Positions 29,363 through 58,490 of a stretch of DNA of 64,000 bases are shown piece by piece. The translations under genes and the position numbers were made by a program. The stretch comes from a virus. The stretch's first letter is position 1. Every line of letters starts with the position of its first letter. The notes under the pieces were generated by a model, which saw only the letters and a list, made by a program, of their open reading frames with translations, had not been told where the DNA came from and searched no databases. Where the stretch lies: the IMG/VR virus record IMGVR_UViG_3300033233_000009, positions 1 to 64,000 of that record; one strand, 5' to 3'.

Positions 29363-30130
29363 ATGAGCAGGTATCCCACGTACCCCAGCCAGCCGTTTAC
29401 TGGGGCGCCGCCGTCGATGTGGTCGGACGTGAACCGGGCGAGCGACACGCGCTACTCGTCCAGCACGGCGCCCTACTACCAGGCGCTCATCGACAAGGCG
29501 CATGGCCGCCACCTGGCTGGCACCGACGACGAGGTGCAGGACGAGAAGCAGGAGTCGGGCTACGCGCTCAACGAGCTGCGGCTCATGGCCGAGATGGACG
29601 ACGTGCAGAACAACGGGGTGTTCGACAACCCCGAGGCGACGCCGCCGAACATCCACAGCGACGCGGGCGTGTTCTCGGTGCGCTTCAGCCTGCCGGGCTA
29701 CCTCGCCCGGGAGCGCATGTTCCACCCGAGCGAGGTGCGCGACGTGACCACGGGGCGCCCCATCGTGGTCGTGCCGAACAGCCCGATCGCGTACGACACG
29801 AGCGCGCAGGTCGCATTCATCGAGCGCGGGCTGAACCAGCCGTTCGGCCCGGTGGTGCAGCAGACCTCGCGCGGCGACATGCCGTACCAGTCGATCGTGA
29901 ACGTCATCCAGAACCCCGAGCCGATCAAGACGGGGCCCCCGGCGTCGGGCTTCGGGCTCGACCTCACCTCGGTGCTGCCGATGGTGACGGACGGGAAGAA
30001 GGCGGCGCTGCTCGCAGGTGGCGCGGCGGTGGTCGCCGGTGCGCTCTGGTACTTCCTGAAGGGACCGGGTAGCCGCAAGACGATGGTGAGCAACCGCAGT
30101 CACCGCGGGACGTCGCGGAGGAAGCGCTGA
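29363..30130 (+). CDS. Tail-anchored putative virion protein
   Basis: GFG, C-terminal TM, then the basic tail MVSNRSHRGTSRRKR; TAGGTT 6 nt before the ATG. Confidence 0.8.
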   Translation: MSRYPTYPSQPFTGAPPSMWSDVNRASDTRYSSSTAPYYQALIDKAHGRHLAGTDDEVQDEKQESGYALNELRLMAEMDDVQNNGVFDNPEATPPNIHSDAGVFSVRFSLPGYLARERMFHPSEVRDVTTGRPIVVVPNSPIAYDTSAQVAFIERGLNQPFGPVVQQTSRGDMPYQSIVNVIQNPEPIKTGPPASGFGLDLTSVLPMVTDGKKAALLAGGAAVVAGALWYFLKGPGSRKTMVSNRSHRGTSRRKR

Positions 30131-30132
30131 AC

Positions 30133-30669
30133 ATGACGAACGGACTCGGCGAATACTTCGGACCGCAGATGCAGCAGGCCGCTGCTGGCTCGCCCGCGCT
30201 CGACCCGTATCCGACGCGCACTTCCGTCCGGCAGCGGCCCGAGGCGCTGCCACCGACGAACGGGACCGGCGAGTACTTCGCGCAGAACGGCATGGGCGCG
30301 TTCGGCCCCGGCGTGATGGGAGGCATGGGCGCCTACAACATGGGCCCTGTCGGGCCGCGGCCGCGTGGCGCGTTCCGCAAGGTCGCGAGCAAGGTGTCGC
30401 CGCTCGCGGGCGCGCTCGGGGACGCTTCCGACGTGATCAGCGACGCGAAGGCGGGCGTCGTGACCGGCGTGGCCGCTGCCACGACGCTGACGGCGCTGCT
30501 GCTCGGGATGGGACTCCGGTTCGGTGCGGGCTGGATCGTCGGCAAGGCGCTCGCGCCGAGCCGTGCCGAGGAGCGCGCCTACACCTGGGGCGGCGCCATC
30601 GCGAGCGTGGTCTTCGGAAGCGTGGGGCTCGGCGTCGAGGCACTCGTCGCCCAGAACATGAAGAAGTGA
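30133..30669 (+). CDS. Membrane protein with GEYF/GLG motifs
   Basis: MTNGLGEYF, NGTGEYFAQNGMGA; C-terminal hydrophobic segments. Confidence 0.8.
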   Translation: MTNGLGEYFGPQMQQAAAGSPALDPYPTRTSVRQRPEALPPTNGTGEYFAQNGMGAFGPGVMGGMGAYNMGPVGPRPRGAFRKVASKVSPLAGALGDASDVISDAKAGVVTGVAAATTLTALLLGMGLRFGAGWIVGKALAPSRAEERAYTWGGAIASVVFGSVGLGVEALVAQNMKK

Positions 30670-30675
30670 CTACCC

Positions 30676-33600
30676 ATGCGTCTCGGTCCGCTCTCCTACC
30701 AGTCGGCGTTCGATCTGCTCAGGGCGAAGGGCTACCAGCCCGTGCCCGGTAGCTCGCGCTTCGAGGACGCCGCGGGGCGCACCGGCCGCATCGTCGAGGC
30801 CGAGGGCCGTGGCGACACGTGGTACGCCGAGGCGGAGGAGGGCGACGCGGACCTGGCGCGCGTGGGCCAGCCCTGCCCGGAGTGCGGCACGGCGATGATC
30901 GACTACGGCGCGCACGGGACGACGTGCCCCCGGTGCGCGGAGGCGGAGGAGCGCGTGCTCGCGGGCGAGTTCGACCCGGCGGTCGTGCCGGGGTACGAGG
31001 AGAACGCCGGAGGGACGTTCGCCGAGGGCTTCGCAGCGGGCCGGCGGGACCGCGAAGCGAGTCACGTCCGGCAGCTTTGCACGACGGGCACGGGCGAGCG
31101 GCCGCCCGTCGTGAAGCGCCAGGGCCGCGACTACTACCACGGGTACAAGGCAGCGGCCGAGGGCGCCACGAGCGAGCCGTCGGCCTACCTCGCGTACCGC
31201 GCGAAGCACAGAGGGATGAGCGGCATGGCGGCGAACGGACAGCCGGGCGACGAGTACGAGTCGAACGCGCGGCGCGGCGCCCAGGCCAGTAAACCTGGGC
31301 GTCACGGCACGCTGTATCTCTGGAGAGTCACCTATCGCGACACCATTGACCCCGGCTTCGGCGAAAGCTCGGTTCTCAAATGGGCGTACGACAAGCAGCA
31401 CGTGTGGGACGTGTTCAACGAACAGGTCAACGCAGAAGGCGAGTCGTGGGAGATCGTCAAGATCGATCCTGCCGCTGCGAAGGAGTACGAGGCGAACGCC
31501 TCGCGCCGCGATCCGGTCGAGACTCTGACCGACCCGGAAGCCGTGAAGGCTGTCCTGCGGAGCCTGCGCGTCAAAAGCGGCCTGACAAGCACCAGTGCGT
31601 CGCTCGGCGGAAAGTGGTCTATCCGGTTCGGGTACAACCGGGACCACTCGCAGTTCACGACGACGCTGACGCACTTCGGAGCAAGCAAGTCCATGACCGT
31701 CGGGCTGCTGCCGGAGGACGTGGAGACGCGCAGCAAAGGCCAGTGGATGACGAGCAATACCTACAGGTTGACGGAGCCGGCGATCGAACGGCTGGCCGAG
31801 CAACTGGTCCCCGCGATGCGGAACTTCGACGCGAAGTACGCGGCGGGCATGGCGGCGAACCCGGAGCGCGGGACGACCATCACAGCGGCAGAGGTCAGCG
31901 CTCTGCCGGTCGGATCGATCCTGTGGGCGGACCATCGAGGCTGGGTCGTGGTGCCCGGCGGAATCGCACCGATCAGCCTCCTCACTGAACGGGCAGGTGG
32001 GCGGGTGCCGGACGGTGAACCGGCTGGAACCATCAGCCCGAACTTCGAGGTGGTGCGCGAGGGCAACGGTAAGGTGCCGACCTACGGCACGGCGCAGCGG
32101 CACGTGATCGCCTGGTACCAGGGCCGGCGTGCGACCCCGAACCCCGTGCACCTCGCGCTCGATGGCAACTTCTCGTTCGGAATCGGAACGAAGGACGACA
32201 CGCACATGAAGAAGAACGCGGCAGCCAAGGGCGAAGTGATCTGGGAGGACAACCTGCTGACGTGGACCTCCGCCGGAGTGGACAAGCTCGGCAATCCGCG
32301 CGGTCTCAACATGACCGCGACCCCCGAGGGCCGCGTGCTCGCGCAGGACATGCTGGCGGAGCGCCAGACCGGACGCCGCCGCGGTATCCTCGCCGAGCAG
32401 GCGGACTTCTTCGACGTCGCCATGGGCAACGGCTGGCAGTACGTCCCGCCGGAGGGCATCGGTGCGCTGACCGACGCGACCATCGTCAGCATGGACGGCT
32501 TCATCGGCGACGACGGCAAGTGGTACCCGCATCCCGACGTGGAGGAGCCCGTCGTGTACGCCCACATGAACTACGAGGTCGAGGACCCGATCGAGTCGTG
32601 GGCGGAGGGCAAGCCGGTGTTCTGGCAGGCCGAGACGATCGAAATGACACCGGAGGGCCGGGCCGCTGCCCTGGAGGAGCTGGCGAGCGCCACGGGGGAG
32701 GCGTACGAGCCGAACGCGCGCAAGAACGTGACCGCGGTGATCAACGCCTTCATGGAAGGGCGCCGCCTCGGCGGGACGACCGTCAGCACGGACGGGCAGC
32801 AGATTTTCTCCTACGCGATGCCGATCGCGGGCTGGGGTGCGGGCGGCGTGGTCGTGCTGGACGCGAAGGCCGCGCCGAGCCGAACGACCGCGAGCCACAT
32901 TCGCGCGGTCCAGTCAGCGATGCCGGAGGCGCGCGTCGTGGCGGCGCTCGATCCGCCCGCCGAAGGGCATTCTGCCGGGCGAAGGCCCCTCGGCTGGGAG
33001 CCGATGCGGGCGAACGCTGCAATCGACGCTGACAAGATCAAGGCCGCGCTCAGGATGGTGCACCACGCCGAGCGTACGTCCACCAACCCTGGCGGAAAGG
33101 ACCGGGCCGTCGCCTATCGGCAGGCCGTGCGGGACTACGGGCTGAACGACGCGGAGGCCGACATCCTTGGGAACGCGCTGCATGTGTCCGCGCACGAGCG
33201 GAACGCGCGTGGCAGCAAGCCGTGGTTCGGACAGGACCAAGGCAACGTCGGGCACTGGGCCTACGCGATCAAGATCGACGGCATCGAGAACGACTTTCCG
33301 CTCAAGCCCCTGGGGCGCCAGGAGGAGTGGCCAGCGGTACGAGCCTTCCAGGCGTCCGCGCGTACCACGTGGATCAATGCCAAGCACGACCGCTCCGGCG
33401 GGATGAACAGCGTCAAGCGATTCGTCAAGTCGGAGCCACGTCCAGACCAGTTCTACGCGAAGTGGTCACCGGGCGATGACAGCTTCCAGATTTGGTACAC
33501 CGTCGGTGAGGCCGCAGAGAGTCACACCCCCAACTGGGGCCTGATGCTCGATCTGGGCGGTGTGGAACGCCGCCTCGGCGCCGACCATGTGGCCGCGGTG

Positions 33601-33759
33601 CTCGGGAGCGTCACGCCGCACGCGGTCGCGCTCGGTCTGGCGAACGACGCCCTGGACGCGAACGACGTGAAGCGGCACGAGGCGTACACGTCGCTCGCGC
33701 GCATGATCGACGACGGTGACCTCGACGACCTGATCGCGTCGGCGCGAGGGCGGGCCTGA
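30676..33759 (+). CDS. 1027-aa multidomain polyprotein-like protein punctuated by [YHM]xxN motifs
   Basis: About 11 recurrences (YEENA, MAANG, YESNA, YEANA, MAANP, ATPNP, MKKNA, YEPNA, MRANA, HERNA, HTPNW) separating dissimilar segments. Confidence 0.85.
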   Translation: MRLGPLSYQSAFDLLRAKGYQPVPGSSRFEDAAGRTGRIVEAEGRGDTWYAEAEEGDADLARVGQPCPECGTAMIDYGAHGTTCPRCAEAEERVLAGEFDPAVVPGYEENAGGTFAEGFAAGRRDREASHVRQLCTTGTGERPPVVKRQGRDYYHGYKAAAEGATSEPSAYLAYRAKHRGMSGMAANGQPGDEYESNARRGAQASKPGRHGTLYLWRVTYRDTIDPGFGESSVLKWAYDKQHVWDVFNEQVNAEGESWEIVKIDPAAAKEYEANASRRDPVETLTDPEAVKAVLRSLRVKSGLTSTSASLGGKWSIRFGYNRDHSQFTTTLTHFGASKSMTVGLLPEDVETRSKGQWMTSNTYRLTEPAIERLAEQLVPAMRNFDAKYAAGMAANPERGTTITAAEVSALPVGSILWADHRGWVVVPGGIAPISLLTERAGGRVPDGEPAGTISPNFEVVREGNGKVPTYGTAQRHVIAWYQGRRATPNPVHLALDGNFSFGIGTKDDTHMKKNAAAKGEVIWEDNLLTWTSAGVDKLGNPRGLNMTATPEGRVLAQDMLAERQTGRRRGILAEQADFFDVAMGNGWQYVPPEGIGALTDATIVSMDGFIGDDGKWYPHPDVEEPVVYAHMNYEVEDPIESWAEGKPVFWQAETIEMTPEGRAAALEELASATGEAYEPNARKNVTAVINAFMEGRRLGGTTVSTDGQQIFSYAMPIAGWGAGGVVVLDAKAAPSRTTASHIRAVQSAMPEARVVAALDPPAEGHSAGRRPLGWEPMRANAAIDADKIKAALRMVHHAERTSTNPGGKDRAVAYRQAVRDYGLNDAEADILGNALHVSAHERNARGSKPWFGQDQGNVGHWAYAIKIDGIENDFPLKPLGRQEEWPAVRAFQASARTTWINAKHDRSGGMNSVKRFVKSEPRPDQFYAKWSPGDDSFQIWYTVGEAAESHTPNWGLMLDLGGVERRLGADHVAAVLGSVTPHAVALGLANDALDANDVKRHEAYTSLARMIDDGDLDDLIASARGRA

Positions 33760-35405
33760 TGGCGCGCAGGAAGGCTGCTACTCCGCGTCGTGCGGCCCAC
33801 TCCGGCACGACGGTGTCCGGCGTGCTGTACCGCGGGCTCGAACCCGTGCTCGTTCCGATCGCCGTAACGGTCGATCCGGGGCCGCCCGGCTTGCGCGTCG
33901 CCGGCCTCACCGAGTCGCACGCGCGGGAGGCGCGGGTGCGCGTGCTGAGCGCGCTCACCGGGGTGGGCTTTGCGCCCGAGGCGCAGATCACGGTGCAGGT
34001 GCCCCAGGAAGCCGCGACCGCCGCCCGCGCGGCGGGCTACCCCGGACTCGACCTTCCGATCGCACTCGGTGTCCTGGCCAGTCACGGGCTGATCCCGGCG
34101 GAGTCGCTGACGGGCACGCTGGCGGTCGGCGAGCTGGGCCTCGACGGCGGTCTGCGCGCCGTGCGCGGTGCGGCCGTGGCCGCAGTCGGCGCCGACGAGC
34201 ACGGCGCGGAGGTGCTTCTCGTCCCCGCCTGGAACGAACCGGAGGCAACCTTTTCCGGGCACGTGCCGGTTCAGCCGCTCCGCGACCTCGCGGAAGCCGT
34301 GGCCTACATGCAGGAGCGACCCGTCCCGCGCATGCGTGTGCATCGCGAGTTCGCGCCGTGCGGCGGGCAGCCAGTGGCCAGCGATCCGGGTCTGCCTCCC
34401 GAAGCGCTGGTGGCGGTCGAGGAAGGCCGCAACATTCTGCTCGTCGGGCCACCCGGTTCGGGGAAGACAATGGCCGCGCGGTACATCCTCGGGCTGCTAC
34501 CGCCGCTGTCCGCGGACGAGGCGACGGACCTGACGCTGATCTACAGCGTCGCCGGGCTGCTTCAAGGTAACTACGCCTGCGCGCGGCCGTTCCGTGCGCC
34601 GCACCACTCGGTAAGCGAGGCGGGGCTGGTCGGTGGCGGCAACCCGCCGCGGCCCGGCGAGGTGACGCTGGCGCACCGCGGGGTGCTGCTGCTGGACGAG
34701 CTGTCGGAGTTCAGCCGAACCAGCATCGAATCGCTCGCGGGCGCGCTGCGCCACGAGCAGGTGACGCGGGTGAAGTACCCGGCGGCCCCCCTGGTGGTCG
34801 TGGGCGCGGCCAACCCGTGCCCGTGCGGGTACCTCGGCAGCACGCGGGCGTGCCGGTGCAGCGACCGGGCTCGGGCGCTGCACGACGAACGGCTCAACGC
34901 GCTGGCCGAAGCCCTGGGCATGGAGCGGTTCGACATTGGGGCGCTCACCGTCAAGGGAATGCTGGGCGTGCACGCGCCGAACGCGCGGCCCGAGTCAGCC
35001 ATTGCGAAGCGGTGGATGCGGGACAGCCTTGCGAACGACATCCACCACGAGTTCGTGGACGGCATCACCGGCGAGGTCAACCTGACCAAGCTGGCGGAGG
35101 AGTGCGCCATCGCGCTCGGGCACACCGAGTGGCTCGACGACGAGACGCATCCGGTGTGGGACTGGGCCATCGAGGTGACGGACGCGGGCGGCTACGCGCG
35201 CAACGCGAGCGCGCGCTTCGTGAACTGGGACCTCTCGCGGACGCCATCCGGTCTGCTCGAAATCTCCTTGGCCAACGGCGCCGTGCTCTACTACGAGGTG
35301 GGGCCGGCGGACTGGCGCAACACGGGCGGCAGCCGAGTGAGCCCCGCGGAGGAGACGACGATCGACCGCTTCCTGGCGTACGCGCTGGCGCAGGGGGCGG
35401 GCTGA
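33759..35405 (+). CDS. YifB/ComM-like (Mg-chelatase-related) AAA+ ATPase, C-terminally replaced
   Basis: DLPIALGVL, GELGLDG.LR.VRG, GPPGSGKTM, RPFRAPHHS, PGEVTLAHRGVLLLDE, ANPCPCGY; then HAPNA- and YARNA-delimited extra domains. Confidence 0.88.
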   Translation: MARRKAATPRRAAHSGTTVSGVLYRGLEPVLVPIAVTVDPGPPGLRVAGLTESHAREARVRVLSALTGVGFAPEAQITVQVPQEAATAARAAGYPGLDLPIALGVLASHGLIPAESLTGTLAVGELGLDGGLRAVRGAAVAAVGADEHGAEVLLVPAWNEPEATFSGHVPVQPLRDLAEAVAYMQERPVPRMRVHREFAPCGGQPVASDPGLPPEALVAVEEGRNILLVGPPGSGKTMAARYILGLLPPLSADEATDLTLIYSVAGLLQGNYACARPFRAPHHSVSEAGLVGGGNPPRPGEVTLAHRGVLLLDELSEFSRTSIESLAGALRHEQVTRVKYPAAPLVVVGAANPCPCGYLGSTRACRCSDRARALHDERLNALAEALGMERFDIGALTVKGMLGVHAPNARPESAIAKRWMRDSLANDIHHEFVDGITGEVNLTKLAEECAIALGHTEWLDDETHPVWDWAIEVTDAGGYARNASARFVNWDLSRTPSGLLEISLANGAVLYYEVGPADWRNTGGSRVSPAEETTIDRFLAYALAQGAG

Positions 35406-37339: not shown

Positions 37340-37343
37340 TCCC

Positions 37344-40593: not shown

Positions 40594-40599
40594 AACCCG

Positions 40600-45860: not shown

Positions 45861-47891
45861 ATGGCCAGAACAATCGGCAAGGCGTTCAAGATCGGCAAGA
45901 AGGACGTGAAGTCCTACGGCTACGCCACGCCGAACCGCCGCGCGGGTGGCCGCATGACGGCGAACGCCGGGGTGACGGCCATCGCGGCCATCAACGGCCC
46001 CGGGGCACACGCTCGGCACCACCGGGGCGTGAGCGCGCGGGCGGCCATGAACGGTCTGTCGCGCGAGGAGCGCCTCGCGCGGGCTCGCAAGATCACCGGC
46101 GCTGACCGGGCGGCGTTCGCGCGCCGCATGGGTGCCGCCACGAAAACCAGAGGAACAACCATGCGAACGAACGCCAGTCCAGCGCAGATCGCGGCCGCAC
46201 GCCGCAACATCAAGAAGGCCATCGCTGCCCGTCGGGCAGGCGGTCATCGCCCGAACCTGCGTCCGATGCGGTTCGGTCGCCCGCTGGGCCGGCCCGGGCT
46301 GCGTCCGAACACCTGGCCCGGCGAGGTCCGTCGGCACGAGCACGCCGCGGCGCGCGGCTGGGCTCTGCGTACCGGGTCCCGTCCGCCGTTCGCCTCGACG
46401 CTGGGCACGGCGGCCAGGCGACGGAAGAAGAAGAAGCACACGGCCAACAGCCGGAGGAAGAAGACCATGAGAACCCATCGCCGGAACTTCAGCGCGAAGC
46501 AGCGGGCTGCCGCGCTCCGCAACCTCCGCAAGGCACGTGCCGCGCGGAAGCACCGCCCGAACGCCCGGAAGACGCGGAGCCGCCGGAAGGCGCACCGCCG
46601 CAACGGGCTGGTGTCGAACAAGCGGCGCGTCGCGCGGCGCAGGAGCCACCGCAAGAACTTCAGCGCGAAGCAGCGGGCCGCCGCGCTCCGCAACCTGCGC
46701 AAGGCGCGCGCGGCGCGGAAGCACCGCCCGAACGCCAAGCGGCGTACGGCTCGCCGGAGCCACCGTCGCAACGGCCTGGTCTCGAACAAGCGGCGCACGC
46801 ACCGCCGGAACTTCAGCGCGAAGCAGCGGGCTGCCGCGCTCCGCAACCTCCGCAAGGCACGTGCCGCGCGGAAGCACCGCCCGAACCGGAAGCACCGCCG
46901 GAACACGCACCGCAAGGCGCACCGCCGGAGCCACCGCCGCAACGGCCTGGTCTCGAACGGAGCATTCCGTCGCAACCAGTTCCTCGCGACGGCCAAGGCG
47001 GTCCTCAAGATCGGCGCGATCACCACGGCGGGCTTCGTGGCGCACAAGGCCGTCACCAAGGTCTTCACCGACCAGATCCTCGACCGCATCCTCGGGTCGA
47101 GCGGCGCGGCCTCCCCGGCCAAGCCGGCGGCGGCGAGCGGGCTCGAAGCGCTCCAGCCCTACCGGAGCATCATCGGCGGCGCCGCAGTCGCGGCGGCCGG
47201 CGTGTTCCTGGCCAACAAGGTGGTCAAGGACACGCAGACCAAGATGTTCCTCACGGCCGGCATCGCGACCTCGCTCGTTCACTCGATCGCGGTCGTCGCG
47301 CTGGCGAAGCTCGCTCCGTCGTACTCCGGCTACCTGTCCGGCGACGGAACGGCAGCCAACATCTCGGCCATGTACGGCTTCGGTGCGGGCGCGAGCATCA
47401 TGCCCGAGTACCACCCGATCAACGGCCTGGGCGAGTACTTCGCGCAGAACGGCCTGGGCGAGTACTTCGCGCAGAACGGCCTGGGCGAGTACTTCGCGCA
47501 GAACGGCCTGGGCGCGTACACGAGCAACCCCGACCTGATGCAGGCGGCGGCGGGCTACGGCGTGGTCGAGAACCAGAACAGCAACATCGTGGACCCCGGT
47601 GGTGACCTCGACGCGCAGCTTTCGATCGCGGAAGCGGCGGCGGGCGTCGGCGCGGTGCCCTACGAGGCGGCAGCCGGCTTCGGCCGGGTGCAGCCGTTCG
47701 AGGCGAGCGCGGGCTACGGCGGCTTCGGTGCGGTGAGCACCGTGCCGCCCACGGCCGACACCTGGATCCCCGGCTCGTCGCACGGCCAGCTCTGGGCAGG
47801 CACCCGCGACATCACCGCGGGCCAGTCGGCCCACGAGATGGTGAGCGCCGGGATCATGGAGACCGGCGGCAACCAGGGGGTCTTCGGCTGA
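45861..47891 (+). CDS. Arg/Lys-rich membrane-anchored putative genome-condensing (core) protein
   Basis: Extremely basic N-terminal half with long repeats, three hydrophobic helices, and an acidic/Gly-rich C-terminus with NGLGEYFAQ repeats; directly upstream of the candidate MCP. Confidence 0.85.
   Translation: MARTIGKAFKIGKKDVKSYGYATPNRRAGGRMTANAGVTAIAAINGPGAHARHHRGVSARAAMNGLSREERLARARKITGADRAAFARRMGAATKTRGTTMRTNASPAQIAAARRNIKKAIAARRAGGHRPNLRPMRFGRPLGRPGLRPNTWPGEVRRHEHAAARGWALRTGSRPPFASTLGTAARRRKKKKHTANSRRKKTMRTHRRNFSAKQRAAALRNLRKARAARKHRPNARKTRSRRKAHRRNGLVSNKRRVARRRSHRKNFSAKQRAAALRNLRKARAARKHRPNAKRRTARRSHRRNGLVSNKRRTHRRNFSAKQRAAALRNLRKARAARKHRPNRKHRRNTHRKAHRRSHRRNGLVSNGAFRRNQFLATAKAVLKIGAITTAGFVAHKAVTKVFTDQILDRILGSSGAASPAKPAAASGLEALQPYRSIIGGAAVAAAGVFLANKVVKDTQTKMFLTAGIATSLVHSIAVVALAKLAPSYSGYLSGDGTAANISAMYGFGAGASIMPEYHPINGLGEYFAQNGLGEYFAQNGLGEYFAQNGLGAYTSNPDLMQAAAGYGVVENQNSNIVDPGGDLDAQLSIAEAAAGVGAVPYEAAAGFGRVQPFEASAGYGGFGAVSTVPPTADTWIPGSSHGQLWAGTRDITAGQSAHEMVSAGIMETGGNQGVFG
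46476..46960 (+). repeat. Three imperfect coding repeats (periods 171 and 153 bp)
   Basis: HR(R/K)NFSAKQRAAALRNLRKARAARKHRPN...HRRNGLVSN starting at 46476, 46647 and 46800. Confidence 0.9.
47421..47514 (+). repeat. Perfect 27-bp coding tandem repeat, about 3.5 copies
   Basis: AACGGCCTGGGCGAGTACTTCGCGCAG (NGLGEYFAQ). Confidence 0.95.
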
Positions 47892-48109: not shown

Positions 48110-48868
48110 ATGGCAAAGGTCGTTTCCATTCGCGAGCGAGTGCACCAGCCCTTCTGGGACAGTCTCGTTCGCACTGCCGGCTTGACCGCCGGTGCCCTCA
48201 ACGACACCACGTCGCTGTTCACCTCGAACGGCGCGCGGTCCGAGGCCACCACCAACCTGATCAACGGCAGCACGCTGCCGTCCGACCAGTCGCACGTGGT
48301 GCTCGCGCTCCGCGTGTTCACGTGGTTCCGCAACCCGATCCTCCGGGTCCCGGGCGGCGCGCCCGGCTCGGGCGAAGTCTCCGAGAACGGCGACTACGGC
48401 ACGCTCACCCCGTGGCTCGTCGGCGGTCCCGGCTTCGGCCAGGCTCCGGCGAACATCGAGGACATCTACCGCCTGCACTGGCAGACGGAGGAGCAGCTCC
48501 ACTGGAGCTTCGGAACGGGCCTCAAGAACAGCATCGACAATGTTCCGACGTGGTACTTCCCGACGGGAGGGGGCATCTCGGGCGACATGGGCGCCGCAAC
48601 CGACCTCATTCACTGGCAGAACAGTGGATGGGACGGGCACAGCGGGATCCTGCGGCTCGCCCGCGCGATCCTGATTCCGCCCCGCCAGAACATCCTCTGC
48701 CAGGCCAAGATTTTCGCCCTCCCCGACGCGGGGCAGGCGCAGACCTTCCTGACGTCGCAGGGGTCGCGGAACATGCTGTCCCTCAAGGACAACCTGAACG
48801 CGGTGGACGCGGCGCAGAAGTGCATCACGTTCGTGTTCGACGGTCTGTTCTCCCGAGACGTTCAGTAG
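48110..48868 (+). CDS. Candidate major capsid protein (single jelly-roll type)
   Basis: Soluble, beta-rich, 252 aa; QPFWDS..LF..TNL..G.TLP...VLALRV and LARAILIPPRQN patterns; GGAG RBS; flanked by hairpins. Confidence 0.55.
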   Translation: MAKVVSIRERVHQPFWDSLVRTAGLTAGALNDTTSLFTSNGARSEATTNLINGSTLPSDQSHVVLALRVFTWFRNPILRVPGGAPGSGEVSENGDYGTLTPWLVGGPGFGQAPANIEDIYRLHWQTEEQLHWSFGTGLKNSIDNVPTWYFPTGGGISGDMGAATDLIHWQNSGWDGHSGILRLARAILIPPRQNILCQAKIFALPDAGQAQTFLTSQGSRNMLSLKDNLNAVDAAQKCITFVFDGLFSRDVQ

Positions 48869-48901
48869 CCAAGTACTGCGCGGCACGGAAGGGACACGGG
48901 A

Positions 48902-48938
48902 AGTGGTCGCGGGGCCTTCGACGGGCCTCGCGACCACT
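48902..48938 (+). terminator. Strong hairpin after the candidate MCP (attenuator or mRNA stabiliser; no U-tract)
   Basis: AGTGGTCGCGGGGCC...GGCCTCGCGACCACT. Confidence 0.5.
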
Positions 48939-49009
48939 CGCTCCCGAGCGGGGGCAGGTCTGATGCGTACGGCGCGCTCCGCCGGTACTCCCTTGTGGAG
49001 GTAGCTACG

Positions 49010-49972
49010 ATGAATCCCATGCTTCAGCAGTTGATGGACAGCGCGGGCCTCGCGATCAAGCAGTCGCGTGACGCGCTGGCGGCCTCGCAGCAGATCGGCA
49101 ATCAGGTCAGCGGGGTGCGCCAGGAAATGGCGCGGCTCGCGCAGAACGCAGCCGATCTCCAGTCGGCGATCGGTCGCTTGCAGGTACAGCGGGCGAACGG
49201 CGACCCGGGCATCCAGCGGGTCGAGAACATCCCCGGGCGGCGGGTGCCGTTCGACCTGTTCGTGGACATCCCCATCGGGGACAACGTGACGAGCGTCCAG
49301 CAGGGCACGATCACGATCAGCCAGGAGGGGCCGTTCGTGGCCGTCTCCCGGATGGCGGTCTTCCTCTCGACCTACCAGTTCCAGGTGGTCACGGACCCGA
49401 ACCAGCCGAACAGCAAGGCGACGTTCGCCGGGCGGAGCTTCGGAAGGCAGCGGCCGATCCACAGCGTGTGGGACCTGAACGACGGGCTGCCGCGCACGCA
49501 GGTCGTGATGGCCGTCGCGATGCCGGGCACGGGCGCCCCGCAGGTGATCAGCCCGTCGAACGCGAGCCCGTTCCGCACGATGGAGGCGGACTACCGGATC
49601 CGGTTCGAGAACGCGGGGTCGAGCTTCCCGCGGTCGAACATCGAAATCCCGAGCGCGTTCTGGACGCGGGGGATGAACGATCCGTTCGAGCTGGCGGCGC
49701 TCGACGTGTTCGAGCGGGGCGAGGTGATGACCTTCCAGGTGCTCCCGCTCCACCCGAACAACCCGCCCTTCGGCAACGTCGCCGGCTTCGGCGCTCCGAA
49801 CCCGGCCTACCCGTTCGTGCAGAGCGGCTGGGATGCGGTGGAAGGCGTCGTGGACGCGAACAACCCCGCTGCCGGCACCACCGATCCGGTGACGCGCGTG
49901 GCGAGCGGCATCCTCACGATCGGCTTCCACGGCTACCGGATCGTCCAGCCTGCGGGCGCGGGCCCGTACTGA
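49010..49972 (+). CDS. Candidate second capsid protein (N-terminal coiled coil plus beta-rich domain)
   Basis: GGAGG RBS; GTITISQEGPFVAV, LDVFERGEVMTFQV, LTIGFHGYRI strands. Confidence 0.55.
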   Translation: MNPMLQQLMDSAGLAIKQSRDALAASQQIGNQVSGVRQEMARLAQNAADLQSAIGRLQVQRANGDPGIQRVENIPGRRVPFDLFVDIPIGDNVTSVQQGTITISQEGPFVAVSRMAVFLSTYQFQVVTDPNQPNSKATFAGRSFGRQRPIHSVWDLNDGLPRTQVVMAVAMPGTGAPQVISPSNASPFRTMEADYRIRFENAGSSFPRSNIEIPSAFWTRGMNDPFELAALDVFERGEVMTFQVLPLHPNNPPFGNVAGFGAPNPAYPFVQSGWDAVEGVVDANNPAAGTTDPVTRVASGILTIGFHGYRIVQPAGAGPY

Positions 49973-49986
49973 GAAAGGGCCCCACG

Positions 49987-50625
49987 ATGTCGTACCGCGC
50001 AACGGGTGCTGTTCCTCCGGTTCTCCACGCGGCGCAGCGGCCGCTCACCGCCCAGGACTGGGCGAACATTTCGCTGTACGCCAAGGCCGTGAAGGACGCG
50101 CAGCGGCAGCGCCGCATGGGCGGCGAGCGGGCGATGCACGGCATGGGCGACCTGGGGCTTGGGCTCCTCCCCGCCCCCGCGCCCGTTCCGATGCCGATGC
50201 CGACGCCGACGCCGGTGGCCACCTCCGTGGCCGACTGCGTGCGGCACAACACGCAGAAACTGGCCACGCTTCCGACCCTCCGGCTGGGAGCGCGCGGCGA
50301 GGCGGTGGGCGGCTGGCAGGAGGAGCTGCGACACCTCGGGGCCGCCATCCGGGTGGACAGCGTGTTCGGTCCGGCCACCCGGGCGGTGACGGTGGCCTGG
50401 CAGCGCAAGCACGGTCTGGTACCGGACGGCGTGGTCGGCCCGCGGAGCTGGGCCACGATGATCCAGGTGCACTGCGCCCGGCGGGCACAGATGGATGCCA
50501 TGCGGGCGACGCACGGCATGGGCGCCGAGGCGGAGCTGTCCAAGCCTTCCGTCGTGCTGCCCGCCTTCGTCTACGGGGCCGCGGTGGGTCTCGGGCTGGG
50601 GTACGTCTTCTTCGCGTCGAGGTAG
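49987..50625 (+). CDS. Peptidoglycan-binding domain protein, tail-anchored
   Basis: PTLRLGARGEAV..WQ..L...VDSVFGPAT..V.AWQRKHGL.PDGVVGPRSW; HGMG motifs; TM. Confidence 0.88.
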   Translation: MSYRATGAVPPVLHAAQRPLTAQDWANISLYAKAVKDAQRQRRMGGERAMHGMGDLGLGLLPAPAPVPMPMPTPTPVATSVADCVRHNTQKLATLPTLRLGARGEAVGGWQEELRHLGAAIRVDSVFGPATRAVTVAWQRKHGLVPDGVVGPRSWATMIQVHCARRAQMDAMRATHGMGAEAELSKPSVVLPAFVYGAAVGLGLGYVFFASR

Positions 50626-50637
50626 GAGCACACCGAG

Positions 50638-51381
50638 ATGGACGCGCAGAAATTCGTCGAGCAGTGCGTCGCCAAGGTGCAGCGGCAGCCGGCGATCCGG
50701 CTCGGTGCCCGAGGCGACGCGGTGCGCGTGTGGCAGACCCTGCTGAACCGGGAAATCGGCCAGGCGCTTCGGGTCGATGGGGTGTTCGGTCCGAACACCC
50801 ACCACGGGACGGTGGCATTTCAGCGCAAGGCCGGCCTGCGCCCGGACGGCGTGGTCGGATCGAAAACGTGGGCGGCCGCATCGGTGGCTCCCTGCTACGC
50901 CCAGGCGGTCGTGCAGCAGCGCGGCGCGGCGGCAGGCAAGGGCGGGGGCCAGGCGGCGCGTCAGGCCGCGCAGGGCCTCGGCCGCGGCGGCGGTGGGCAT
51001 CACGGCGGTGGCGGTCACCACGGCGGCGGCGGTCATGGCGGTGGGGGACACCACGGCGGCGGCGGTCGCTTCTGGGGTGGGGGCGGCGGCGGCGCGTACT
51101 TCGCCCCGGGCGGCGGCTACCCGTACATCGTCGAGGACTACGGGCCGACGCTGCTCGTGGTGGGCGACGACTGCGCGAACCGCGTGCGGAACTCCTGCTA
51201 CCAGCAGTTCAGCCAGAACCCCGCTCAGCAGGCGGGCTGCACGCAGGCCGGTCTGGCCCGGTGCGGCACGGCGGGCCTCGGGGCGATGGACTTCACCTTC
51301 TCGGTGCTCGACCCGAAAAGCATGGTTCTCGGGGCCGTGCTCGGCCTCACGGTCGGGGCCGTGCTTTTCGGGCGGAAGTGA
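50638..51381 (+). CDS. Peptidoglycan-binding domain protein with a Gly/His-rich segment, tail-anchored
   Basis: IRLGARGDAVRVWQ...DGVFGPNT...FQ..AGL.PDGVVGSKTW; GGGGHH repeats; GLGA followed by TM. Confidence 0.88.
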   Translation: MDAQKFVEQCVAKVQRQPAIRLGARGDAVRVWQTLLNREIGQALRVDGVFGPNTHHGTVAFQRKAGLRPDGVVGSKTWAAASVAPCYAQAVVQQRGAAAGKGGGQAARQAAQGLGRGGGGHHGGGGHHGGGGHGGGGHHGGGGRFWGGGGGGAYFAPGGGYPYIVEDYGPTLLVVGDDCANRVRNSCYQQFSQNPAQQAGCTQAGLARCGTAGLGAMDFTFSVLDPKSMVLGAVLGLTVGAVLFGRK

Positions 51382-51396
51382 GCGAAGATCAGGCGC

Positions 51397-52275
51397 ATGC
51401 AGCCCAGCTTCCGCGAACAGATGCTCGCCTCGTTCCAGGCGGTGAATCCCCACATGGCGCTGGGCGCTGCGCCGCCGCAGCCGGAGCCGGCCGCGAGCTT
51501 CAAGGAGACGAGCATCAACAAGGTGGTCCAGGCGGGCGGCGAGGTTGCGGCGCGCTTCATGCACCCGACGTTCCTGCCGTTCGAGAAGCTGTACCGGAAG
51601 TTCCCGCAGCAGGGCGTGTTCACGGCGACGCCACAAAACAACTTCGTGCTGGAGCTGGGGTCGTTCCGGGTGCCGCAGCAGATGGCGTTCGCCCTGGTGG
51701 ACTACCGCTTCGACCTGTACCGGCTGTCAGGGGCGGCAGCGGGCGACTGGGTGCCGCTGGAGGAGCGGCGCCTGTCGGGCCAGATCGGCTACGACGTGCT
51801 GATCGCTGACTACCGCAAGGCAAACCTGTCGTACGAGCTGGACCCGACGGAAATCCAGGCGGCGAAGGAGGCGAGCGAGCAGCCGCCGAGCCCCGGCATC
51901 ATCGCGGCGGGCGCGGAGTTCAACAACAATTTCCCGCCGCAGATCGGCAACCCGCTGTTCCCGCCGAGCGCGGCGCCGTTCGGCGCGAGCCTCACCGACT
52001 TCGCGAACGCGCGCGCGGCCGCTGCGTCGTCGCCGGGTGGCCCCGGGCTGTCGCTCATGCCGCAGCGCCACGAGCGGCTCGGGCCGCTGCCGCTGCCCTT
52101 CACGCTGATGGTGCGCGAGAACCAGCGCGTGACGTTCAAGGCCGTCGTGTTCCGGCCGGTGCCGATCCCGCTGGCGTTCTTCGAGGTGGACGTGACCGGC
52201 GTGCTCATGCCGGCGAACGTCGCCGATTCGCTGCTCGCCGCGATGGCGCCCTACGTGCCGCAGGGGAGGCACTGA
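51397..52275 (+). CDS. Candidate third capsid/penton-like beta-rich protein
   Basis: LELGSFRVPQQMAFALVDYRF and FTLMVRENQRVTFKAVV strands. Confidence 0.5.
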   Translation: MQPSFREQMLASFQAVNPHMALGAAPPQPEPAASFKETSINKVVQAGGEVAARFMHPTFLPFEKLYRKFPQQGVFTATPQNNFVLELGSFRVPQQMAFALVDYRFDLYRLSGAAAGDWVPLEERRLSGQIGYDVLIADYRKANLSYELDPTEIQAAKEASEQPPSPGIIAAGAEFNNNFPPQIGNPLFPPSAAPFGASLTDFANARAAAASSPGGPGLSLMPQRHERLGPLPLPFTLMVRENQRVTFKAVVFRPVPIPLAFFEVDVTGVLMPANVADSLLAAMAPYVPQGRH

Positions 52276-53449: not shown

Positions 53450-53467
53450 ACCAAAGGACAAGTAACC

Positions 53468-53878: not shown

Positions 53879-53900
53879 GAGGCCCGCCGCTCTCCCGATA

Positions 53901-53938
53901 CCGAAAACTTGACGGCGAGCCGGGCAGCCGGCGAGCAT
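53901..53938 (+). promoter_or_regulatory. Recurrent viral promoter
   Basis: CCGAAAAC-TTGACG-18-GAGCAT. Confidence 0.6.
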
Positions 53939-53955
53939 GAAGGAACAGGCAAACC

Positions 53956-54360
53956 ATGTCGCTCAATCAGATGGCGTACCAGTCCGGCGTGCTCGGGGCC
54001 CTGCCCCCGGCTCCCGCCTTCCGCTCGGGCTCGCTCGGCGTGCTCGGCTTCGTGCCGCCGGTGTCCGGTGCGGTGCGCTCGGGCTCGCTCGGCATCCTGG
54101 GGGCGCCCCCACCGAGCGGCGCCGTGAAGTCCGGCGTGCTCGGCACGCTCGGTGGCGGCCCGCCTCCCTCCGGTGCGGTGCGCTCCGGCTCGCTCGGTGT
54201 ACTCGGCGAGTACTTCGCGCAGAACGGCCTCGGTGCCGATGCGGTCGTGATGCCCACCGCGGTGGGGCCGAAGCCCGCCATGGCGACCCTCACCATGGCC
54301 ATCGCTGGCCTGGGCGCGGTCGCCGCGATCTGGTGGGCCATGACCCGCCGGCACGCCTGA
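53956..54360 (+). CDS. Tail-anchored repeat protein
   Basis: Repeated SG(S/V)LG.LG..PP.SGAV; GEYFAQNGLGA; TM. Confidence 0.75.
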   Translation: MSLNQMAYQSGVLGALPPAPAFRSGSLGVLGFVPPVSGAVRSGSLGILGAPPPSGAVKSGVLGTLGGGPPPSGAVRSGSLGVLGEYFAQNGLGADAVVMPTAVGPKPAMATLTMAIAGLGAVAAIWWAMTRRHA

Positions 54361-54456
54361 GCCCGGCATCGGAGGGCTGCCCGGGAGAGCCCTTCGGAGC
54401 GGACGCCCGAAAACTGGCGTGAGGGTTGGACCCAGGTGTAGCCTGCGAGGCACAGC

Positions 54457-55798: not shown

Positions 55799-55801
55799 GC
55801 C

Positions 55802-56581: not shown

Positions 56582-56604
56582 GAGGCGGGAAGGCAAGCAA
56601 CCCC

Positions 56605-57276
56605 ATGTCATACGATCGCGTGAACCCGACCTACTACCAGACGTTCCAGCAGGACACGCCCTTCCACGCCGGATCGGAGGGCTGGACGAGGTCGCCCTGG
56701 CCGACCTGGGGCGACAACCCGAACCTCGCGGGTCGGCGCACGCTCGCGACCGACGGGCTCGGTGGCTGCGGGTGCGCGGGAGCGTCCGGGCTCGGCACCG
56801 TCCTGGCAATCTCGGGGCTCGGCACCGTCGCGGTGACCAAGCCGGCGCCGTACTCCGCGCCCGCTCGGGCGACCATGGGCAACCCGGCGTCGGAGAACTG
56901 CGTCGCGAAGGGCGGCACGGTCCAGGTCGTCGAGACGCCAGCGGGGCAGAGCGGGATCTGCGTGTTGCCGAACGGCACCCGGTGCGAGGAGTGGGCGCTG
57001 TTCCGCGGCCAGTGCGGCCCGGCGGCGGCGAGCATGTTCCCTCCCATCCCCGAGCAGCCTGCCTGGAAGAAGGCGCTCAGCATGGCGGCGGGGGCCGCCT
57101 GCGCCTACCACGGCTTCAAGCGGAACGAGTCGGCAGGCTGGGCGGTCGCGTGGGCCGCGTTCGGCAGCACGATCCCCCTTCTGGCGCTCCCCATTGCGCT
57201 CGCGCAGGGCTTCGGGAAGCCGGCGCGGAAGCCCGCGATGGCAGCGAACAGGCGGCGCGGTCGCGCCCGGCGCTGA
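56605..57276 (+). CDS. DUF333-like domain membrane protein
   Basis: MGNPASENCVAKGG...GICVLPNGTRCEEWALFRG; GLG x3; tail MAANRRRGRARR. Confidence 0.8.
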   Translation: MSYDRVNPTYYQTFQQDTPFHAGSEGWTRSPWPTWGDNPNLAGRRTLATDGLGGCGCAGASGLGTVLAISGLGTVAVTKPAPYSAPARATMGNPASENCVAKGGTVQVVETPAGQSGICVLPNGTRCEEWALFRGQCGPAAASMFPPIPEQPAWKKALSMAAGAACAYHGFKRNESAGWAVAWAAFGSTIPLLALPIALAQGFGKPARKPAMAANRRRGRARR

Positions 57277-57282
57277 GCCCGA

Positions 57283-57320
57283 CCGGAAACTTGCCGGCCC
57301 CCGACCGGGGGGCGTAGCCT
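57283..57320 (+). promoter_or_regulatory. Recurrent viral promoter, leaderless
   Basis: CCGGAAAC-TTGCCG-18-TAGCCT, 6 nt to the ATG at 57327. Confidence 0.6.
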
Positions 57321-57326
57321 CGGGGC

Positions 57327-58490
57327 ATGGACTACTACCGCGTCGGCTACGCACAGTCCCCGCTCGTTCCCATGGGGATGGGCTCCTCGCCCGACGGCCT
57401 CGGCGCGTACTTCCAGACGACGTACCAGCAGCCGATCCGCGCGGTGCACGGCGGCACGAGCACGGTGGCGGCCTACCAGCCGATCGATGGGCTCGGCGCG
57501 TACTTCGCGACGACGTACCAGCAGCCGATCCGTCCGGCGCAAGGCGGCGCGAGCATCATCGCGGACTACAAGCCGATCGACGGGCTCGGGGAGCTGACGC
57601 CCGCCCAGCGCAGCGCAGTCGCCTGGGCCTCGCTCCTCGGCTTCGTCGGGTGGGGCAGCGGGCTCCTGGCGCGGGGCCCCGTCTACGCCCGCAAGCGCGG
57701 CCCGTGGGTACCGCTGGCCGGCGCGGCGGCCGGCGTGGCGGTGGGCTACGCGATCGGCACGCGGCGGGCTACCGCCCCGCCTGCGCCCACGGCTGGCCTT
57801 GGCGCGTGCCTCCCGTGCATGGCAGCGGCCGCGGGCCTCGGTGCGGATGCGGTGCCGGCGGCGACGCCCTCCGCACTCAGCAAGCCATGGGTCAAGGTCG
57901 CGCTCGGTGTCGGCGCCGTCACGCTCGCCTGGTACACCGTGCCGGCGTTCCGCAAGCTGTGGGGTCCCGGTGGCGCGCTCGCGAAGAACAAGCGGCACCG
58001 GCGGAACGCGCACACGGGCGGACCCGACGATCACGTTTACGCGCCAAGCGGGATGCGTGGCTGGGATGCCTGCGCGAGGTGCGGTTACGCCCGCGGACAG
58101 CACCTCACTGCTGCCGAGCTAAAGCGACTCCGCTCGCTCACGCCGAACCGCCGCCGCAGGCACCGGAAGAACGCGAAGTGGTCGGGCAAGGCGAAGCGGA
58201 GCCTGCCGGACACCAGCTTCCTCTACGTTGCGCCCGGCGGCCACGCGCGCATCGAGGGCGGCAAGAAGGTCACCATCCCGCGGAGCCTGCGGAAGTTCCC
58301 GTACCGCACGGCGGCGGGCAACATCGACCTGCCGCACCTGCGGAACGCCATCGCGCGCATCCCGCAGTCGAACCTGCCGGAGAGCCAGCGCACGCTGCTC
58401 CAGGCGAAGGCCCGCGCCATCCTCGCCGAGCACGGCGGGTACAAGCGCGCGCGCAAGGCGGCGGGCGGCGTGCTCCGACAGGCGGCGTGA
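57327..58490 (+). CDS. 3-TM protein with DGLGAYF repeats and a basic C-terminal domain
   Basis: DGLG x3; TMs; HRRN/HRKN motifs; the segment LPDTSF...RKFPY...IDLPHLRNAIARI is recalled from phage head-associated small domains. Confidence 0.8.
   Translation: MDYYRVGYAQSPLVPMGMGSSPDGLGAYFQTTYQQPIRAVHGGTSTVAAYQPIDGLGAYFATTYQQPIRPAQGGASIIADYKPIDGLGELTPAQRSAVAWASLLGFVGWGSGLLARGPVYARKRGPWVPLAGAAAGVAVGYAIGTRRATAPPAPTAGLGACLPCMAAAAGLGADAVPAATPSALSKPWVKVALGVGAVTLAWYTVPAFRKLWGPGGALAKNKRHRRNAHTGGPDDHVYAPSGMRGWDACARCGYARGQHLTAAELKRLRSLTPNRRRRHRKNAKWSGKAKRSLPDTSFLYVAPGGHARIEGGKKVTIPRSLRKFPYRTAAGNIDLPHLRNAIARIPQSNLPESQRTLLQAKARAILAEHGGYKRARKAAGGVLRQAA

Follow-up and report, generated by a model that had tools for sequence, protein, structure and literature searches.

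The window analysed here is a stretch of 64,000 nt (positions 1 to 64,000 of IMGVR_UViG_3300033233_000009; one strand, 5' to 3') from a virus record of at least 124.6 kb, which encodes 177 proteins and is rated 69% complete; its relatives span 61–182 kb. The source is a large uncultured bacterial virus, probably tailless and membrane-containing, whose virion module the window carries. Genes were called with our own codon log-odds scheme and transmembrane (TM) segments with our own Kyte-Doolittle (KD) windows, which placed TM segments in 23 of the 34 module proteins. Comparisons used the window and 20 relatives, with 186 tail-anchored proteins in total. The following features, named below by their start positions, carry the argument; two short motifs, G[LMF]G and [YHMLF]xxN (hereafter xxN), recur among them.

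27987..28532, + strand: transglutaminase-fold Cys-His-Asp enzyme, first gene of the virion module
29363..30130, + strand: tail-anchored protein; GFG at aa 196 (nt 29948-29956), TM 214-232 (nt 30002-30058)
30133..30669, + strand: two-TM protein; N-terminal 107 aa with three GLG/GMG plus FAQN in one stretch
30676..33759, + strand: polyprotein-like ORF of 1027 aa, with xxN sites at module junctions
33759..35405, + strand: ComM/Mg-chelatase-like ATPase with two appended modules (Pfam Mg_chelatase, 7.9e-50)
40597..41145, + strand: tail-anchored protein; GLG at aa 8 (nt 40618-40626), TM 131-149 (nt 40987-41043)
45861..46976, + strand: Arg/Lys-rich N-terminal region (aa 1-372) of the basic membrane-tethered protein 45861, with 19 xxN sites
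46977..47315, + strand: H1-H3 of 45861, three conserved, moderately hydrophobic segments (family alignment)
47316..47888, + strand: acidic Gly-rich C-terminal domain of 45861, with seven G[LF]G at aa 506-621
48110..52275, + strand: three capsid-like proteins (48110, 49010 and 51397) with two tail-anchored peptidoglycan-binding-like proteins between them
53956..54360, + strand: tail-anchored protein; LG-rich repeats whose last unit is EYF-AQN-GLG; the two motifs share one stretch
56605..57276, + strand: tail-anchored DUF333 protein; three GLG in the N-domain, TM 181-199
57327..58490, + strand: membrane protein; four N-terminal GMG/GLG, two of them as GLG-AYF units, and a basic C-terminal half

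The three capsid-like proteins are present at the loci of all 20 distinct relatives, and 49010 homologues share 41–88% identity with the window's protein among the 15 analysed carriers of the 45861 family. An AF2 model of 49010 (pLDDT 78.8) gave weak Foldseek matches, the best to SH1 6qt9_C (E 5.3e-3, prob 0.21) and others to HHIV-2 and SPV1, all of them jelly-roll capsid proteins. In a VIA comparison it aligned with a PBCV-1 capsid chain (Z 6.4, rmsd 4.0, 125 aligned residues), a match listed beside many coiled-coil matches to its N-terminal helix.

G[LMF]G occurs 53 times in 32 module proteins against 13.3 expected from within-protein shuffling (200 shuffles, composition kept; z 11), whereas 142 other proteins show no excess (26 vs 23.5 expected) and the control G[IVA]G is flat (24 vs 25.4). 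It lies outside TM segments in 20 of the 23 TM-bearing module proteins and is enriched in 19 of the 20 related viruses. The N-domains of the 186 tail-anchored proteins hold 149 copies (42.8 expected) distributed over 101 proteins, mostly close to the N-terminus, with 49 copies in the first 20 residues and 80 in the first 40. These counts bear out the initial annotation, which assigned GLG, GMG or GFG to most tail-anchored proteins. Ala is about twofold enriched at each of positions -3 to -1, Tyr 5.0-fold at +4 and Phe 3.9-fold at +5, and M, I or L precedes the motif at -2 in 134 of 498 copies (27%, background 14%). Predicted TM helices contain 77 of 500 copies, which may be packing motifs. The overall distribution supports G[LMF]G as a mark of the non-basic N-domains of membrane-anchored proteins.

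Some copies sit next to the membrane: 28 of the 149 fall 0–20 aa ahead of the C-terminal TM and are followed by a basic tail. Proteins 28561, 44624, 50638 and 52355 are examples of this layout. G[LMF]G, TM and basic cluster could together form a sortase-, exosortase- or rhombosortase-type signal read by a host or viral transpeptidase, and in 159 of the 186 proteins the tail does carry more positive charge than the flank ahead of the TM. Exported sorting-signal proteins require a signal peptide, however, and by a crude hydropathy test a signal-peptide-like (hydrophobic) N-terminus was found in only 1 of 186; the majority of copies are, moreover, N-terminal rather than juxtamembrane. The one possible sorting enzyme searched for, a C39 peptidase, had no match. 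We regard such a signal as very unlikely.

The motif xxN occurs 85 times in module proteins against 45.1 expected (z 6.4; shuffles), with flat register controls (xN and xxxN, 45 vs 45) and a weakly raised [YHMLF]xxQ control (77 vs 62.5). The enrichment holds for the module as a whole, but it is concentrated in four proteins (45861, 30676, 33813 and 57327), and with these removed the remainder is not significant (37 vs 30.2). Across the whole 177-protein genome, only 30676, 45861, 57327, 60156 and, weakly, 107407 are individually enriched. Non-module genes also show more sites than expected (103 vs 81.8), an excess that is unspecific because xN and xxxN rise there to the same degree. In basic regions, the residue at -3 of Asn is enriched 8.8-fold for H, 6.3-fold for M, 5.2-fold each for Y and F and 3.9-fold for L, with P 3.8-fold at -1, G 2.6-fold at +1 and Lys/Arg surrounding the sites. 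An xxN-enriched protein of 439–875 aa is found at 18 of the 20 relatives' loci, ending immediately ahead of the capsid-like genes at 16 of these loci and lying further upstream in L007 and L010. Besides the basic membrane-tethered protein family, xxN marks a small number of poly-Arg tails, the polyprotein-like ORF and the C-terminal portion of 57327.

Protein 45861 joins both motifs in one chain. Its first 436 residues carry a net charge of +119, and its xxN sites precede its G[LF]G copies, the reversed order described in the initial annotation. Within the C-terminal domain, four GLG are spaced 9 aa apart (aa 522-549) and three of them are followed by EYFAQN, so that FAQN sits within the same GLG repeats; the extreme C-terminus is conserved. 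Of the 268 Asn in 15 family members, 179 are preceded at -3 by Y, H, M, L or F (32.6 expected), and this rule is seen in all 15 although the basic sequence cannot be aligned. The number of membrane-spanning segments in 45861 is uncertain from hydropathy: among 19 members, a cut-off of KD≥1.55 predicts zero, one, two or three hydrophobic segments in 2, 6, 10 and 1 proteins, respectively, and KD≥1.3 predicts two to four.

Repeats and paralogy are evident in the module. Protein 45861 has long internal repeats, and several tail-anchored proteins share a PPPVLHAAP... stretch and AYA..VKA repeats, which makes some of them paralogues. Both motifs might on that account be functionless by-products of composition, low-complexity repeats or such shared modules, as the mild xxN excess in other genes might also suggest. 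The shuffles preserve composition, however, the register controls are flat in the module and the excess elsewhere lacks register specificity. The -3 rule outlasts recognizable alignment in the 45861 family, and individual G[LMF]G sites are gained and lost between orthologues at a steady copy number, which is the behaviour of selected short linear motifs. We therefore disfavour by-products as quite unlikely; G[LMF]G and xxN are real, virion-module-specific, clade-conserved short motifs.

The placement of xxN in the polyprotein-like ORF bears on its function. Fifteen of the 35 Asn in 30676 lie in the motif (5.5 expected, z 4.6). In the closest relative (L031), a single 1091-aa ORF fuses the 30676 modules with a ComM-like module, which is inserted exactly between HVSN|A and MRRN|A sites; at the corresponding junction the window has MKKN|A, and HAPN|A after the separate ComM gene. 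In that ATPase (33759), a site leads into each of the appended modules, HAPN at aa 405 and YARN at aa 479. Twelve free-standing proteins of 121–236 aa (about 155) are homologous to the 30676 module at aa 515-680, which N514|A and N680|A bound, and most of their ends fall within a few residues of these two sites. The polyprotein itself is restricted to the window and its closest relative, with no clear match in five further records. Because xxN lies at the junctions of shuffled or free-standing modules, we read it as a processing site; the evidence supports processing-signal behaviour of the motif both on cargo proteins and on basic proteins that are probably DNA-associated.

The gene at the head of the module encodes a candidate reader of one or both motifs. 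Protein 27987 matches Pfam Transglut_core (PF01841; 32.3 bits, above the curated cut-off of 23, with E 1.3e-7), has homologues at 41–65% identity in all five relatives searched and keeps the triad C108, H141 and D158 invariant in 6 of 6 aligned sequences; its only PDB match is a weak one to PNGase (E 0.73). It may be no protease, or may not read these motifs, because cross-linkers, deamidases and PNGase have the transglutaminase fold as well; passages of PMC10318531 likewise place transglutaminases, deamidases and proteases together in the papain-like clan. Searches of the virus record, itself 69% complete, gave no adenain match (PF00770, E≤0.1), no Ulp1-like gene (PF02902) and no match to the Asn/Asp-specific clan CD families legumain C13 (PF01650) and caspase-like C14 (PF00656), although a host enzyme of that clan may act instead; nor was the C39 peptidase of double-glycine leaders (PF03412) matched in the record.

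The Asn could instead be a side-chain substrate, for Lys cross-linking or deamidation, stitching core proteins together or to the membrane. Transglut_core is the only recognizable Cys-enzyme fold in the module, PNGase, its weak best structural match, acts on Asn side chains, Lys and Arg lie around the sites and the clan includes enzymes of both kinds. Yet sites that coincide with module junctions and free-homologue ends are predicted by a delimiter and not by a cross-link site, and transglutaminases normally act on Gln, not Asn, with the Gln version of the motif only weakly raised. Side-chain chemistry is unlikely in our judgement.

The initial annotation had gone further and read the two motifs as addresses on opposite sides of the membrane, separated by an odd number of TM segments in 29363, 40600 (our ORF 40597-41145), 57327 and 45861. 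Both motifs are present in all four. A single TM clearly parts them in two: 29363 has MVSN at aa 241 (nt 30083-30094) in its basic tail, and 40597 has HTPN at aa 170 (nt 41104-41115). Even here the G[LMF]G side has its own xxN sites (YALN at aa 67 of 29363, HARN at aa 74 of 40597), and a second GLG of 40597 lies within its TM. In 45861 and 57327 the number of segments is ambiguous. Six G[LM]G of 57327 lie at aa 17-170, two of them between weak hydrophobic segments, and LAKN, HRRN, LTPN, HRKN and HLRN at aa 218-337; of its 3–4 weak segments, 0 pass a strict cut and 4 a lax one, and the L001 homologue has a single TM.

Read strictly, such a code would have xxN face the DNA and G[LMF]G the capsid, with each motif sorting or processing proteins on its own face. 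Single-TM tail-anchored proteins agree with it in that xxN exceeds chance in their tails alone (13 vs 2.7 expected, against 129 vs 126.7 in the GLG-side N-domains) while G[LMF]G abounds in the N-domains; the hydrophobic segments of the 45861 family also part an xxN-rich basic half from a GLG-rich domain, and the proteins that otherwise carry xxN are soluble and cargo-like. The motif is present in only 13 of 186 tails, however, so its association with basic tails is real but sparse, and those of 29363, 40597 and 56605 are conserved only as far as the closest relative. The tail motif and basic run of 29363 are kept there and absent from four more distant homologues; the L001 homologue of 40597 retains [H]xxN and a poly-Arg tail; the 56605 tail layout is kept in L001, and its xxN tail is missing from six more distant homologues.

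Both motifs also occur on one side. The tail of 56605 and that of its L001 homologue hold the two together (in 56605, GFG at aa 202 and MAAN at aa 212), 12 xxN in the window are no more than 12 aa away from a G[LMF]G, FAQN recurs inside GLG-EYF-AQN-GLG repeats of 45861, 30133 and 53956, and units such as GLG-AYY-KN in relatives place [YF]xxN straight after GLG. Overall, 71 of 890 sites lie this close to a G[LMF]G against 84.8 ± 8.3 at random, a short-range avoidance that is not significant (285 of 300 random placements equalled or exceeded the observed co-occurrence). The commonest segment count in the 45861 family, two, would leave both ends on the same side, and the count in 57327 depends on the threshold. 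Absolute orientation is paradoxical, because tails exceed the pre-TM flank in positive charge in 159 of 186 proteins yet a signal-peptide-like N-terminus appears in only one. The apparent opposite-sides pattern arises because basic segments carry xxN and Gly-rich N-domains carry G[LMF]G; as a topological code it is not demonstrated, and we hold the strict reading improbable. What survives of the two-address proposal is a pair of conserved motifs, one of them processing-like, and not the topological rule.

We propose a role for each of these two independent clade-conserved motifs, a reading to which we give about an even chance. Phi-x-x-Asn (Phi = H, M, L, Y or F) would most likely be a proteolytic site or module delimiter, cut after Asn: in the Arg-rich half of the membrane-tethered basic protein it would release small protamine-like peptides, in the cargo ORF it would divide the modules of the polyprotein, and in a few membrane-protein tails it would stand ahead of poly-Arg ends. 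G[LMF]G, often followed by x-Tyr-Phe or preceded by Ala-Ala, would tag membrane-anchored proteins in their non-basic parts, where most copies fall in the first 40 residues or form tandem repeats, and would serve as a docking or incorporation peptide or as a second kind of cut site. Tandem GLG units 9 aa apart would yield odd products if cut. The transglutaminase-fold enzyme would read one or both motifs. A combined arrangement, with an Asn-directed transglutaminase-fold protease on the DNA side and GLG docking to the capsid on the other, has a small probability in our view; if true, these viruses would be a new family of large membrane-containing bacterial viruses, and carving of protamine-like peptides and cargo on one face and docking on the other would make a genuine two-faced addressing system.

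Cleavage at Asn would imply an Asn-specific viral protease in a prokaryotic virus, of which a full-text literature search found no report. The G[LMF]G tag would offer a way into the recruitment of dozens of unrelated proteins to a virion membrane, which is an open question for PRD1-type phages too. Being short, countable and conserved, the two motifs give direct predictions for virion proteomics.

One of the nearest known systems is that of adenoviruses, in which, according to passages of PMC4246237, the protease AVP (adenain) cuts pVII, pre-mu, pVI, pVIII, pIIIa and pTP at (M/I/L)XGG-X or (M/I/L)XGX-G. On that description, the systems share a four-residue site whose P4 position, three before the residue at the cut, is hydrophobic. 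Both have many such sites, found in the basic precursors of DNA-condensing core proteins as well as in particle proteins unrelated to them, and both encode a cysteine enzyme beside structural genes; G[LMF]G with M, I or L at -2 may resemble the XGX-G form. They differ in that Asn stands at the putative cut here and Gly in adenovirus, so that the Asn motif misfits the AVP consensus as given there, and in that our candidate has a transglutaminase fold in a record lacking an adenain- or Ulp1-like gene, from a virus with a bacterial host. Cleavage in the present virus is suggested by sequence statistics.

African swine fever virus (ASFV), whose pp220 and pp62 polyproteins are cut at Gly-Gly-X by a viral cysteine protease, is likewise a large internal-membrane virus that makes core components as polyproteins with a short repeated cut site; its motif, enzyme family and eukaryotic host are different, and the polyprotein here is limited to the window's lineage. 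Tailed phages use capsid-targeting or cargo-loading peptides; in T4, for example, the prohead protease removes the targeting sequence of internal proteins. G[LMF]G similarly forms a short N-terminal tag on unrelated particle proteins, but its carriers are membrane-anchored and the tag also occurs in tandem repeats and beside TM helices. Tripartite C-terminal sorting signals (LPXTG, PEP-CTERM and GlyGly-CTERM) combine a motif, a TM helix and a basic cluster, as do the C-termini of many proteins here, although signal peptides are nearly absent and most motif copies lie far from the TM. The three small conserved capsid-like proteins and the abundance of TM proteins recall the SH1, HHIV-2 and P23-77 group of internal-membrane viruses with single-jelly-roll capsid proteins, and the weak matches of the modelled 49010 include SH1 and HHIV-2, but the genome, at least 124.6 kb, is several times larger than those of that group. 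If the Asn motif is cut, maturation would resemble that of adenovirus or ASFV in its polyprotein cargo, its processed basic core peptides and its particle-borne cysteine enzyme, but would have arisen with a different enzyme fold and site.

The virus record (G000) is a single 124,597-base record of ~70% G+C with a completeness rating of 69%, and the window forms its first 64 kb. We called 177 genes from codon log-odds and transmembrane (TM) segments from our own hydropathy windows, using a strict cut for TM counts because a lax cut put evident false segments in soluble proteins; ambiguity is stated where it arises. From ~28 to 60 kb every gene lies on the plus strand, in a block of mainly orphan proteins (the virion module), 23 of 34 of which carry TM-like hydrophobic segments, usually one, C-terminal and followed by a short basic tail. 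Pfam and PHROGs searches left nearly all motif-bearing proteins as orphans. Comparative material consisted of 21 loci of 13–21 kb (20 distinct, as L003 equals L004) around homologues of ORF 49010 (ORFs are named by start coordinate), located in viral contigs of 38–182 kb with identities from 89% down to 34%.

Features in and around the virion module, and one outside the window
22000–26000: G+C dip to 0.59–0.62 versus about 0.70 elsewhere, with genes on the minus strand; probably a recent insertion
25083–26057, minus strand: ISXO2-like, transposase-looking ORF within the low-G+C region
27235–27990: HNH-endonuclease-like ORF (Cys clusters and a DH..N motif in the translation) bordering the module
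about 35452–36295: second HNH-like ORF with the same elements, absent from the codon log-odds gene calls, breaking into the module between the ATPase gene and 36299
54457–55077, plus strand: Cys-rich protein within the module that ends in a DnaJ (J) domain (Pfam 7.9e-14), kept in 18 of the 20 distinct relatives' loci
G000 118508–121033, minus strand (L025 14508–17033), outside the window: putative metallopeptidase (DUF2201_N) and VWA-like domains in an 841-aa protein split by a LAGLIDADG-domain intein; a 383-aa gene without a Pfam match adjoins

The initial annotation had proposed that two short motifs, [YHMLF]xxN (xxN) and G[LMF]G, form a two-address sorting or processing code on opposite faces of a virion membrane. 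That the virus contains a membrane and is tailless is plausible, not proven, given the conserved capsid-like proteins, the fold matches of 49010 and the TM-rich block. The soluble proteins 48110, 49010 and 51397 are conserved across all relatives found, and public data contain at least 569 homologues of 49010. An AF2 model of 49010 from a 76-sequence alignment (pLDDT 78.8), replacing an unusable one from 15 sequences (pLDDT 39.8), comprises a 60-residue helix and a beta sandwich. Its best Foldseek matches, which are weak (E 5.3e-3), include capsid proteins with a jelly-roll fold from SH1 and HHIV-2, two viruses with an internal membrane, and VIA gave Z 6.4 against a PBCV-1 capsid chain. Complex predictions pairing each of two capsid-like proteins with the last 200 aa of 45861-family proteins scored 0.01 and 0.00 and count neither way.

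Within-protein shuffles put G[LMF]G in the module at four times expectation (53 against 13.3, z 11), and still at 46 against 11.9 without the repetitive 45861; the remaining genes show no excess (26 against 23.5), and the G[IVA]G control is flat. The excess recurs in 19 of 20 relatives' loci (overall 445 against 159). Of 186 tail-anchored proteins with a single TM segment (window 15, relatives 171), 101 carry the motif in the domain preceding the TM segment (149 copies against 42.8), where 49 of the 149 copies fall in the first 20 residues, 80 in the first 40, and a smaller group of 28 within 20 residues of the TM segment. Ala is found at -3 to -1 and Tyr/Phe at +4/+5; M/I/L occupies -2 in 27% of copies versus a 14% background, and predicted TM helices contain 77 of 500 copies. 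Tandem units with aromatics are frequent, for example GLG-AYF...PI-x-GLG in several families. Being short, mainly N-terminal and positionally labile between orthologues with copy number kept, G[LMF]G behaves as a tag; it would fit either a docking or incorporation peptide or another kind of cut site.

Beside the two motifs, a third module, in which repeated Ala-rich AYA..VKA heptad-like units come after a Pro-rich PPPVLHAAP-like stretch, is shared by these tail-anchored proteins:
28561–29310, plus strand: tail-anchored protein
39044–40003, plus strand: tail-anchored protein
42167–44590, plus strand: tail-anchored protein
44624–45217, plus strand: tail-anchored protein
49987–50625, plus strand: tail-anchored protein

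The Asn motif is concentrated in fewer proteins. In the module proteins of the window it occurs 85 times against 45.1 expected, with flat register controls, but the excess disappears once 45861, 30676, 33813 and 57327 are removed (37 against 30.2). Only 30676, 45861, 57327, 60156 and, weakly, 107407 are individually enriched among the 177 proteins. An enriched protein, large and basic (439–875 aa), is present in 18 of 20 relatives' loci, and in 16 of these its gene stops a short way upstream of the capsid-like ones. In the basic region of 15 members of this 45861 family, Y/H/M/L/F stands at -3 of 179 of 268 Asn residues against 32.6 expected, led by His (8.8-fold) and Met (6.3-fold); there is a preference for Pro at -1 and for Gly at +1, and the Arg/Lys-rich flanking sequence is not alignable. 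These patterns indicate that xxN is a selected short linear motif. Helix capping was rejected as its cause, given the specificity of the -3 register and carrier segments that are basic, cannot be aligned and are probably disordered; a DNA-level cause was rejected because, by inspection, the codons of Y, H, M, L and F have no common pattern.

Module junctions suggest what the motif marks. In the closest relative, a single 1091-aa ORF (L031 3278–6553) fuses the modules of 30676 with a ComM/Mg-chelatase-like ATPase module, a separate gene in the window (33759–35405, plus strand). The fused ATPase module lies exactly between HVSN/A and MRRN/A sites; the corresponding window junction has one site, MKKN/A, and HAPN/A directly follows the window's own ATPase domain. 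Here an entire enzyme module moves in the manner of a cassette. The 30676 module between N514/A and N680/A has 12 free-standing homologues (121–236 aa), most of which start and stop no more than a few residues from N514 and N680; five further relatives yielded no clear homologue of the 30676 polyprotein, with one 18.8-bit match. From the shuffled ATPase module and the free-standing homologues ending at sites, we infer that xxN delimits independently folding units. In nearly all family members the last xxN of the basic protein lies a few residues ahead of the first hydrophobic segment, and in tails xxN precedes the poly-Arg end. A single processing site cut after Asn would explain all three settings: module junctions, basic protein and tails.

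The candidate enzyme is 27987, a transglutaminase-fold protein encoded by the first gene of the virion module, with an invariant Cys-His-Asp triad and a homologue in five of five relatives searched. Its fold also permits cross-linking or amidase chemistry at the Asn motif, a rival to cleavage. No C5, C13, C14, C39 or C48 protease was matched in G000, whose 69% completeness means that absence from the virus is not shown.

Both motifs are present in the ORFs for which they had been described, '40600' being ORF 40597–41145, and in single-TM proteins the enriched xxN and enriched G[LMF]G populations lie on either side of the TM segment. The strict opposite-sides arrangement is nevertheless contradicted: xxN before the TM segment is at chance (129 against 126.7), only 13 of 186 tails bear it, and both motifs share a stretch in 71 cases (12 in the window), not significantly fewer than under random placement (84.8 ± 8.3; 285 of 300 placements gave at least 71). 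G[LMF]G occurs in tails 3 times against 1.0, and tails are too short for testing its absence. Shared stretches include:
GLG-EYF-AQN-GLG repeats
56605 tail, plus strand: both motifs, conserved in the closest relative
GLG-AYY-KN units in relatives

Segment counts vary with threshold. 45861 has three conserved but weak hydrophobic segments, and 10 of 19 family members have two at either threshold, a number that would leave both ends on the same side; 57327 has zero or four, and its closest homologue one. In the 45861-family alignment (47316–47888 and relatives), the extreme C-terminus ...AGIL..GG.GVFG and a TWIPG...LWAG block are kept to the most distant relatives and exceed the GLG repeats in conservation. 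The C-terminal part of 57327 (58200–58490) is a folded-looking domain with a IDLPHLRNAIARIPQ-like block after a basic stretch, which we take to resemble a motif widespread among phage proteins.

In 159 of 186 proteins the tail is more positively charged than the flank preceding the TM segment, and a signal-peptide-like start is present in only one of 186, so the positive-inside rule points to one orientation and the near absence of export signals to the other. Peptidoglycan-binding-like repeats (DG.(F/L)G..T motifs) in five tail-anchored proteins (36299–40003 and 49987–51381), again without signal peptides, deepen this puzzle. Overall, the initial annotation is partly confirmed: the processing half of its code gains support for xxN from junctions, basic protein and tails, whereas the half concerning two membrane faces is unproven.

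No account of these motifs or of this virus clade turned up in full-text literature searches, and the system does not fit the enzyme families of adenovirus or ASFV maturation or of phage capsid targeting. In its working, the proposed system comes closest to adenovirus or ASFV maturation and to phage capsid-targeting tags, and the geometry of xxN recalls adenovirus protease sites, with their hydrophobic residue at -3.
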